In this document: piece by piece, positions 1 through 1,950 of the stretch
Layout of the letters: the number at the start of each line of letters is the position of its first letter
Numbering within the stretch: the first letter of the stretch is position 1
DNA from: Escherichia coli
Lineage (GTDB): Bacteria > Pseudomonadota > Gammaproteobacteria > Enterobacterales > Enterobacteriaceae
Assembly: GCF_003334385.1 (NCBI RefSeq)
Contig: NZ_QOWN01000106.1
Direction: 5' to 3' (one strand)
Length of the DNA stretch: 1,950 nucleotides
Made by a program: the position numbers

Positions 1-1950
1 GCTGCCGCGAAAGCAGGAATACTGCCGGAGGGTTTTTTCTGGACGGATGCGGAGAATAACGACGTCCCGATGACGGCTGGGGAGCTGATGGCACTCAGTG
101 AGGCGGCGGAGAAGGCGATGTTCACCAAAGGGATGGAAATTCATGTCAGACAGCGCACGATGAAAAAAGAGATTGAAGCGCTGGGTGATGCGGAAGCTAT
201 ACTGGCGTATAAGGTCGGCATGGCTGACAGGTGAAAAAAAGAGGGGCGCTCCAGCCCCTTGCTACAAAGCTATGGCTAAATAAAGAATACTCAGGTCGAG
301 GAAATGATCTGGCAATGATAATTAAAGGAGATGCAACGGCCTCCTTCACCCCTGTCAAAGATAAAAAACTGGGGAGTGCGTGCTCCCCGAGAGCATGATA
401 CTTGTGGTTGATAGTTATTTTTATCCGGCGACAAAGATATTGAGATGAGGTCGCGGATGCAATACAGAATTTTCGTATTGCATGGTAACTGCTGATTCCT
501 GAAACTGAAAGTCGTCATGAAACTGTAAGCGAAAAAACGGGGAGACGGCACGCTCCCCAAGGTCATACATGAGATAGTGGTGTTTTTATAGTCGAAAGAA
601 TAATTGCATAAAAAGAGTGTAAATTAAACATTCAGGGGATACAGAATTTTCGTAGGCTGAGGGATTGCTGAAAATAATTTAGTGCGTCCTTCAATGGTCA
701 TTCAATGGTCATCAGATTGTGCTGATGTAAACAGTTAAGCACAATTTGATTATTTGACTTTCTTCTTTTTGTGACTAACTTCACAATTAAAGATGTAACC
801 GTATACAAATTGTTGATGAATAAAGAGACAGCATAAGTGGCAGGCCAGTCGTAATGCGGATATCCCTTCGCGAACGTGATATCACCGACGTTATAGTAAG
901 GAAATTCCGAAAAACTTCATATTAAAATTCGGAATTTCTTCAGGAGTAAGCTCATGAGAGCGGCGAGACATCAGATTTTCTTTATATATCCGATGTTGAA
1001 CTGTTTTATTTGTATACAGATAATTTTATAGGGTATACCACATGAGCAAGAAATTTACAAAGACTATTCTTTCATCTGCTGTTGCCGGTCTGTTGTTGGT
1101 GAGTGGTGGGGTTGTTGCGGCAAATCCTAAGGACGTAAATATTGGGGGCGAGTACATCGTAAAATTTTACAATGATGGGGAAGGTGCCGAGATAGTAAAA
1201 GCAAAAGGAAAAAAAGAGGTTTTATTAGGTGCTATTAATACAACAACAGGAAGCATCATGACCTTTAATGAAAAGGAGGCTGCTAAAAGTAAAACGCAGG
1301 ATGATTTTAATTCTATTGTGTATCCTGTCTACTTACCTGAGTTAAAGCTGGAAAATATAAAATCCCTAAATGTCGATGATATAAAGAAAATACAAGAAAT
1401 AAAAAAGAATGTGTCTGAGGTTGTTACATCTGCCAACTCAGCTGAGTATTTATCTGCTATAAGAAGTGGCGGTAATACTGAGGCTTACTTAGCAATTAAC
1501 AAAACATCTCCAGCTTTATCAAAAGAGTACTCTCGCATTTCTGGGAATATCGAACAGCTGAATAAAGACACCACTTTTGCAATTGACGCTGACGGCAACA
1601 TTACTCTGGATGAGACAGTCGGTACAGGTGAGCGCTATGGTGTGAAGGATGTTGTGGCTGATCTTGTTGCTGACACGACTGTGTATGCCGAAGAAGATGG
1701 TTCACTGACGATGGATAACAGTGCTCCAGCAAGAAAGCGTGTTAATGAAGCACTGGTTGACCTGGACAAATCTGTTCGTGAGCGTACCACTGTTGGTGTG
1801 AGTTCTGACGGCACCCTGACCCGTGCAGAAGGTGCAAAGAACACCATTTCTGTTAACGATGGTCTGGTGGCCCTGTCTGGTCGTACTGACCGTATTGATG
1901 CAGCAGTTGGTGCCATTGATGGCCGTGTCACCCGTAACACGCAATCCATT

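Follow-up and report, generated by a model that had tools for sequence, protein, structure and literature searches.

The closest described counterparts of the locus studied here are the eib genes carried by prophages of Escherichia coli. Eib proteins are immunoglobulin-binding adhesins responsible for the chain-like adherence of both commensal and Shiga-toxin-producing E. coli. Their expression is poor unless permitted by the conditions or by the IbrAB genes. EibG peaks in static culture at 37°C and is at the detection limit at 23°C, and eibG mRNA is about threefold higher in static than in shaken culture (PMC4352079). In addition, expression of the eib genes depends on ibrA/ibrB (Sandt et al., 2002, as cited in PMC8065619).

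A stem-loop is already annotated upstream of eibA, eibC, and eibD. The GenBank record of prophage P-EibA from E. coli ECOR-9 (AF151091.1) carries a "stem_loop" feature at 3777-3814, ahead of eibA, and the records of P-EibC and P-EibD, prophages of the same strain (AF151674.1 and AF151675.1), carry a weaker one, TAAATTTA-N13-TAAATTTA, at the homologous place; none of the three has a function entry in these GenBank records. The stem-loop is also not treated in the available portions of PMC4352079, bioRxiv 10.64898/2025.12.25.695649, and PMC8065619. We find that the inverted repeat analysed here, P1, is the stem-loop annotated upstream of eibA. Within a structured eib leader of roughly 140 nt, P1 comes first among the hairpins and is the least conserved of them. 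Our preferred reading, to which we assign a probability of about 0.4, is that P1 would tune the eib transcript as a hairpin close to its 5′ end that the leader can do without.

Genomic Context of the Inverted Repeat

The window (the whole stretch of 1,950 nt that was analysed) is E. coli prophage DNA, as its matches to E. coli prophages indicate. It holds the 3′ end of a tail-fibre assembly gene (DUF4376; 1-234), the 5′ part of a gene for an Eib-type YadA-like trimeric autotransporter adhesin (1042-1950, + strand; the gene extends beyond the window), and an intergenic region of 800 nt between the two. Positions 600-1100 were matched in 59 of 5,426 complete genomes, at a median of three places in each, and in the phage collection this region matches P-EibA. 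The gene in the window is a related eib allele, not an identical one, and its leader is 94% identical to that of P-EibA over 860-1100. The annotated eibA stem_loop corresponds base for base to positions 901-938 of the window (38 nt), and the distance from the stem_loop to the ATG is 141 nt in both. A second annotated stem_loop (5121-5149 in AF151091.1) lies directly 3′ of eibA and is presumably the eibA terminator; its position directly after the gene fits eib as a self-contained inserted gene.

Sequence and Folding of P1

Direct reading of the sequence bears out the original prediction of an inverted repeat with perfect 11-bp arms and a spacer of 16 nt at 901-938. The 5′ arm, GAAATTCCGAA (901-911, + strand), and the 3′ arm, TTCGGAATTTC (928-938, + strand), flank the A/T-rich spacer AAACTTCATATTAAAA (912-927, + strand), and the stem is lengthened by the pairs G900·U939 and A899-U940. 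The hexamer TATAGT (892-897) and the aggag (942-946) on either side of P1 also lie where that prediction had placed them. Among the perfect inverted repeats of the window with loops of 3-30 nt, P1 is the longest; dinucleotide shuffling produced arms of at least 11 nt in 3 of 300 trials (about 1%) with the window and in 2 of 300 with the intergenic region, which has 39% G+C. The RNA from 895 to 960 folds at −17 kcal/mol (z = −3.4; none of 200 shuffles was equally stable), the P1 hairpin region folded alone reaches −13.8 kcal/mol (z about −4 to −4.8), and in folds of the full leader P1 forms a domain independent of the downstream helices P2-P4. The original prediction had offered two functions for P1, an operator and a 5′-UTR stem-loop controlling ribosome access to a leader ORF. 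The stem-loop itself fits better than chance, but the role in ribosome access is not backed (see below).

We also considered P1 as an intrinsic (Rho-independent) terminator and rejected it, given 3 G-C pairs in a stem of 11, a loop of 16 nt, and a 3′ flank of TTCAGGAG. A terminator scan of the window found no terminator on the + strand.

P1 in Nine Types of eib Leader

We took eib loci from complete genomes, viral contigs, and metagenomes, and an nhmmer screen yielded 59 distinct leaders, which were sorted into nine types (A-I); the window belongs to type A, the eibA type. A strict DNA pattern retrieved eib loci from viral and metagenome contigs; on contigs representing one genome per species it gave only chance matches outside Enterobacteriaceae, and the matches of a loose DNA pattern on viral contigs were mostly due to chance. 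All types share one layout: TAnnnT followed by A(A/C)G, a block AAGATAAATCCTAAA, an A/T-rich stretch, a box GGAATATCCTG, a long hairpin with a T-rich tract, TTTGTATACA, a Shine-Dalgarno sequence, and the ATG. The 5′ arm of P1 lies inside the block AAGATAAATCCTAAA, which is conserved across types; the sequence of the 3′ arm is not conserved between types, and the spacer has common polymorphisms at 915, 916, and 918 within type A.

The P1 region of each type was folded alone and compared with dinucleotide shuffles. The predicted hairpin is strong in types A (−13.8 kcal/mol, z −3.8 to −4.8), C (−12.1 to −13.6 kcal/mol, z about −4.2), and E (−8.9 kcal/mol, z −2.7), weaker in type B (−5 to −6 kcal/mol, z −2.2 to −3.9), and decayed in types D, F, G, H, and I (0 to −5.5 kcal/mol, no different from shuffles). 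Single variants can fall well below their type: a type-A variant with a G-to-A change in the 3′ arm folds at −6.9 kcal/mol (z −1.55), and the type-B variant L002 at −1.4 kcal/mol (z −0.4).

Across 35 distinct sequences, 70.8% of cells pair in the register of the window, compared with 63.9 ± 0.9% in shuffled and 26-60% in slid controls, and the covariation score is 0.184, compared with 0.114 in shuffled controls (none of 500 reached it) and at most 0.117 in slid ones. Between types A and C, the three pairs 901-938, 902-937, and 905-934 have each undergone a fully compensatory double change. Two C-G pairs in the core of P1 are broken in 19-22 of the 35 distinct sequences, and in type D, which includes eibC and eibD, GG has become AA with no compensating change. 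A strand test on P1 counted 52 G·U and 43 A·C cells. Since pairing exceeds the controls and yet the core is broken in many sequences and the hairpin decayed in five types, the predicted P1 pairing is kept in some lineages and is not obligatory in the leader.

The main rival to a 5′-end hairpin is that P1 has no selected function, being a dyad retained by descent in A/T-rich DNA close to a promoter, with the perfect 11-bp version of eibA produced by templated correction of a quasi-palindrome. Any effect on expression would then be due to A/T-rich DNA as such, for example through H-NS silencing of a horizontally acquired gene. P1 is lost or weak in five of the nine types, the GG-to-AA change of type D went uncompensated, and clustered complementary differences in a perfect dyad are what a single templated event is expected to leave. 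The arms also show no extra constraint within type A, where variable sites occupy 2 of 22 arm positions, 3 of 16 loop positions, and 13 of 103 positions in the rest of the leader. In addition, A[A/C]GATAAATCC, the conserved 5′ block, has a putative resemblance to the published H-NS nucleation motif TCGATAAATT. EibG being off at 23°C (PMC4352079) would likewise suit silencing. Against a functionless dyad, pairing in the same register across types exceeds both shuffled and slid controls, 11-nt arms are rare by chance, and three independent leader types hold a stable stem with different sequences. We regard an origin by descent or mutation as unlikely, although it is the strongest competitor of a hairpin that tunes the transcript.

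The −10-Like Box and the Transcription Start

The TATAGT hexamer upstream of P1 (+ strand) occupies a place at which all nine leader types have TAnnnT followed by A(A/C)G, and T1, A2, T6, A7, and G9, counted from the start of the hexamer, are invariant in the nine-type alignment. T1, A2, and T6 are the weightiest positions of the sigma-70 −10 element. Their invariance across nine divergent leader types supports the earlier call of TATAGT as a −10-like box, which is plausible, and the hexamer may thus be part of a promoter. No consensus −35 element was found for this box, and no consensus sigma-70 promoter with a −35 element was found at P1 or in the homologous regions of two other loci (L002 and L004). 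The only consensus promoter match on the + strand of the window, TTGAAC-17-GATAAT, is at 996-1024, inside P3/P4. The place expected for a −35 element of TATAGT holds a perfect 10-bp palindrome in the window (GTGATATCAC, 877-886). Small dyads of other sequence are found there in other leader types; types C and E, for instance, have GGTGTAGTC-N12-GACTACACC, and type G has CTCCA-N5-TGGAG.

From the TAnnnT box, transcription is predicted to start at about 903-905, and a start just past the box would make P1 terminal, or nearly so, at the 5′ side of the mRNA. If the start is assumed to be at 904, the stem in the RNA falls to 8 bp and −6.3 kcal/mol. The compensatory pairs that involve 901 and 902 are 4-5 nt past the hexamer and upstream of the predicted start, which would mean that there are starts further upstream, that the pairing acts at the DNA level, or that the differences are mutational in origin, the perfect dyad having perhaps come from templated quasi-palindrome correction and not from selection.

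The same geometry bears on the operator option, in which a dimeric regulator would bind both arms across the start and repress or activate eib; the literature offers the IbrA/IbrB activator pair as a candidate. The dyad covers about −3 to +35 relative to the predicted start, the block holding the 5′ arm is conserved in all types, and eib expression needs IbrAB (Sandt et al., 2002, again as cited in PMC8065619). We did not find the conserved half-sites expected of an operator, since the 3′ arm differs between eibA, eibC/eibD, and the other types, and in the case of eibA and eibC/eibD even between paralogues of one strain. Other types keep dyads through different bases, which fits a structure and not a sequence-specific protein. 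With 27 bp (about 2.6 helical turns) between their centres, the half-sites are off phase, and 18 kb of prophage contain no second copy of the arm. Thus, the operator half of the original prediction is weak: the conservation of the 5′ arm block speaks for it, but the unconserved 3′ arm, the off-phase half-sites, and the lack of further copies speak against it, and we consider a protein-binding dyad improbable.

The Putative Leader ORF and the Conserved Box

The original prediction had the hairpin govern ribosome access to a leader ORF, with the aggag at 942-946 as its Shine-Dalgarno sequence. A 25-codon ORF (954-1031) is present in the window, with AGGAG 7 nt before its ATG at 954, and in types A, F, and G an ORF of 22-25 codons spans P3 and stops close to the Shine-Dalgarno sequence of eib. 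These are the points in favour of a 5′-UTR hairpin that gates ribosomes onto a short ORF controlling eib. The ORF is however missing in types B, D, E, and I, which have no ATG, and stops after three codons in type C and after one in type H, so that it is absent or reduced to 1-3 codons in six of the nine types. Within type A, AGGAG is changed to AAGAG in three variants and codon 3 is variable, and the small ORFs, this one included, had no PHROG match. P1 ends 3 nt before the aggag, which lies outside the hairpin and is left unsequestered. Leader-peptide control of eib is therefore poorly supported, and ribosome gating by P1 onto this ORF seems to us very improbable.

What is conserved in this stretch is instead a nucleotide box pairing with the ribosome-binding site of eib. 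The aggag and the ATG that follows it are the type-A version of the box GGAATATCCTG, which in the window reads GGAGTAAGCTCATG (943-956, + strand) and holds both the claimed Shine-Dalgarno sequence and the ORF start codon; the reading of aggag as a leader-peptide Shine-Dalgarno is not upheld. In the per-sequence folds of most types, helix P2 joins this box to the Shine-Dalgarno or start-codon region of eib: AUAUCCUG with CAGGAUAU in types C, D, E, and I, AUACCCU.AUGAAA with UUUCAUAGGGUAU in type F, CCUCAUG with CAUGAGG in type G, and GCUCAUG (950-956) with CAUGAGC (1041-1047) in the window.

Structure of the Downstream Leader

P2 encloses two further elements. P3 (958-1006, + strand) is a long hairpin with a U-rich tract and has strong covariation between types, and TTTGTATACA (1009-1018, + strand), which is the same in 58 of the 59 unique leaders (one has TTTGCATACA), forms the mini-hairpin P4 (1007-1022). 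The eib ribosome-binding region follows (1030-1047, + strand), with the AGGG Shine-Dalgarno at 1030-1033, the ATG at 1042, and the 3′ strand of P2 at 1041-1047. Folded without recourse to any alignment, the stretch between the box and the ATG is more stable than its shuffles in every type (z −2.2 to −7; −2.3 in type A, with the lowest near −6.7), the exception being the type-B variant B2, whose z of −1.05 is not significant.

A covariance model, for which eight sequences without gaps (types C, D, E, and I) were used, matches 49 of 55 searched sources at E ≤ 0.01, including the window at 943-1052 (30 bits). In the resulting alignment 83.6% of cells are paired, compared with 72.5% in shuffles, and the covariation score is 0.333, compared with 0.155 in shuffles (reached by none of 500) and at most 0.119 in slid controls, the pairing counts leaning towards structure because the alignment was fitted to the model. 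Both sides have changed in 14 of the 17 pairs of P3, and many pairs are G·U, which points to an RNA of the + strand. In P2, 77% of cells are paired and three pairs have changed on both sides, with types A and B off register. Judged from these alignments, the downstream leader is certainly a + strand RNA structure, and this fold is better supported as a regulatory part than P1.

Opening the ribosome-binding site of the window is predicted to cost 8.75 kcal/mol, compared with 5.3 ± 1.45 kcal/mol in shuffles. By type, the cost is above that of shuffles in A, C, F, and G (z 1.9-4.9) but not in B, D, and I. Applied to a plain MAFFT alignment, RNAalifold recovered only the TTTGTATACA mini-hairpin, because pairing registers differ between types, and per-sequence folds and the covariance model were used in its place. 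A search of the window against Rfam at E ≤ 10 returned no relevant match (two weak matches elsewhere were far below the gathering score), and six other leader types had no Rfam match at E ≤ 1.

Other Features of the Intergenic Region

Upstream of the leader, TGTGACTAACTTCACA (770-785) contains perfect CRP half-sites, TGTGA-N6-TCACA. Every one of the nine leader types has a CRP-like site that matches at 8-10 of 10 half-site positions, and its centre is 111-116 nt upstream of the −10-like hexamer across an intervening sequence that has diverged. A match with up to two mismatches is expected by chance (mean 1.1 in shuffles of the window), and its conservation is the notable part.

Hairpins resembling intrinsic terminators are found at 242-259, 371-388, and 538-559, with T-tracts on the minus strand; five minus-strand sites of this kind were found against 1.4 expected. 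These hairpins suggest leftward transcripts in 260-880. The hairpin at 242-259 lies directly after the stop codon of the tail-fibre assembly gene and is in the + strand orientation in L002 and L004. No small ORF on the minus strand had a PHROG match.

The region also contains a diverged tandem duplication of about 170-177 nt (358-400/527-570 and 462-477/639-654), both copies of which contain the 16-mer ATACAGAATTTTCGTA unchanged, with a minus-strand terminator-like hairpin about 85-90 nt to the left of it. A palindrome with 9-bp arms (457-483) sits on one copy of this 16-mer. The core of P1 had been likened to the spacer of this palindrome as a hint of a shared recognition element. The likeness is weak: GAATTTC occurs in both arms of P1 and once inside the upstream gene, and nowhere else in the window, and GAATTTTC is confined to the 16-nt exact direct repeat (462-477 and 639-654). 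We rejected a motif common to P1 and the palindrome, their core words being distributed differently. In addition, the 11-mer TCAATGGTCAT is present twice in tandem (691-701 and 702-712) and is followed by an inverted repeat with 8-bp arms, ATTGTGCT and AGCACAAT (716-723/738-745).

A Possible Role for P1 and the eib Leader

We propose that transcription begins a few nucleotides past the TAnnnT box, at about 903-905, so that P1 would fold at or beside the 5′ end of the eib mRNA and act in cis. By analogy with the ompA hairpin, it could shield the 5′ end from 5′-end-dependent decay; it may also stop the A/U-rich 5′ segment from disturbing the fold downstream, in which the box would pair with the eib Shine-Dalgarno sequence or start codon (P2) around P3 and P4. 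P1 would tune this arrangement and would not be essential to it. Formation of P1 in the RNA, and any effect of it on stability, are predictions from sequence. We count in favour of this reading that a deletion was complemented by eibG carrying 168 bp of its upstream sequence (bioRxiv 10.64898/2025.12.25.695649).

More broadly, and only as a tentative suggestion that we hold to be rather doubtful, the eib leader from about 898 to 1047 may be an undescribed cis-regulatory RNA of prophage immunoglobulin-binding adhesin genes. Its parts would be P1 as a variable 5′ module, the box of P2, P3 with its U-tract, and the invariant UUUGUAUACA (P4), and it would set translation or premature termination according to temperature or a factor such as IbrAB. 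If so, it could explain the silence of Eib at 23°C and in naive lysogens; the ibrA/ibrB requirement reportedly holds for eib in new lysogens. To our knowledge, neither the pairing at the ribosome-binding site nor the covarying P3 of the eib leader has been described before. P1 itself adds little, since it was already annotated, but its placement in a conserved multi-hairpin leader that is predicted to occlude the ribosome-binding site, with a CRP-like site upstream, provides targets for work on eib regulation.

Among known elements, the eibA stem_loop (AF151091.1) is the same as P1, with the same 38 nt at the same 141 nt from the start codon, and the eibC and eibD stem_loops (AF151674.1 and AF151675.1) are like P1 in position, being homologous. 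RNA thermometers of the FourU and ROSE kinds resemble the eib leader downstream of P1 in that an upstream box would pair with the Shine-Dalgarno sequence or AUG, and EibG is repressed at 23°C (PMC4352079). The eib leader differs from them in having no Rfam match, in a pairing register that varies by type, and in an occlusion that is not significant in types B, D, and I. In the 5′ UTR of ompA, a hairpin protects the mRNA from 5′-end-dependent decay. Like such stabilising hairpins, P1 is predicted to be stable, to be at or near the 5′ end of the mRNA of an outer-membrane protein, and to fold as a domain apart from the ribosome-binding site; unlike them, it has a 5′ end that is only predicted, and it is dispensable in many paralogues. 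Morons are accessory genes that have been inserted into a late operon together with a promoter and a terminator of their own. Similar to the phage morons lom and bor of lambda, eib is situated between tail-fibre genes with its own conserved upstream control region and, for eibA, an annotated stem-loop downstream; it differs from these in that its control region is unusually long and structured.
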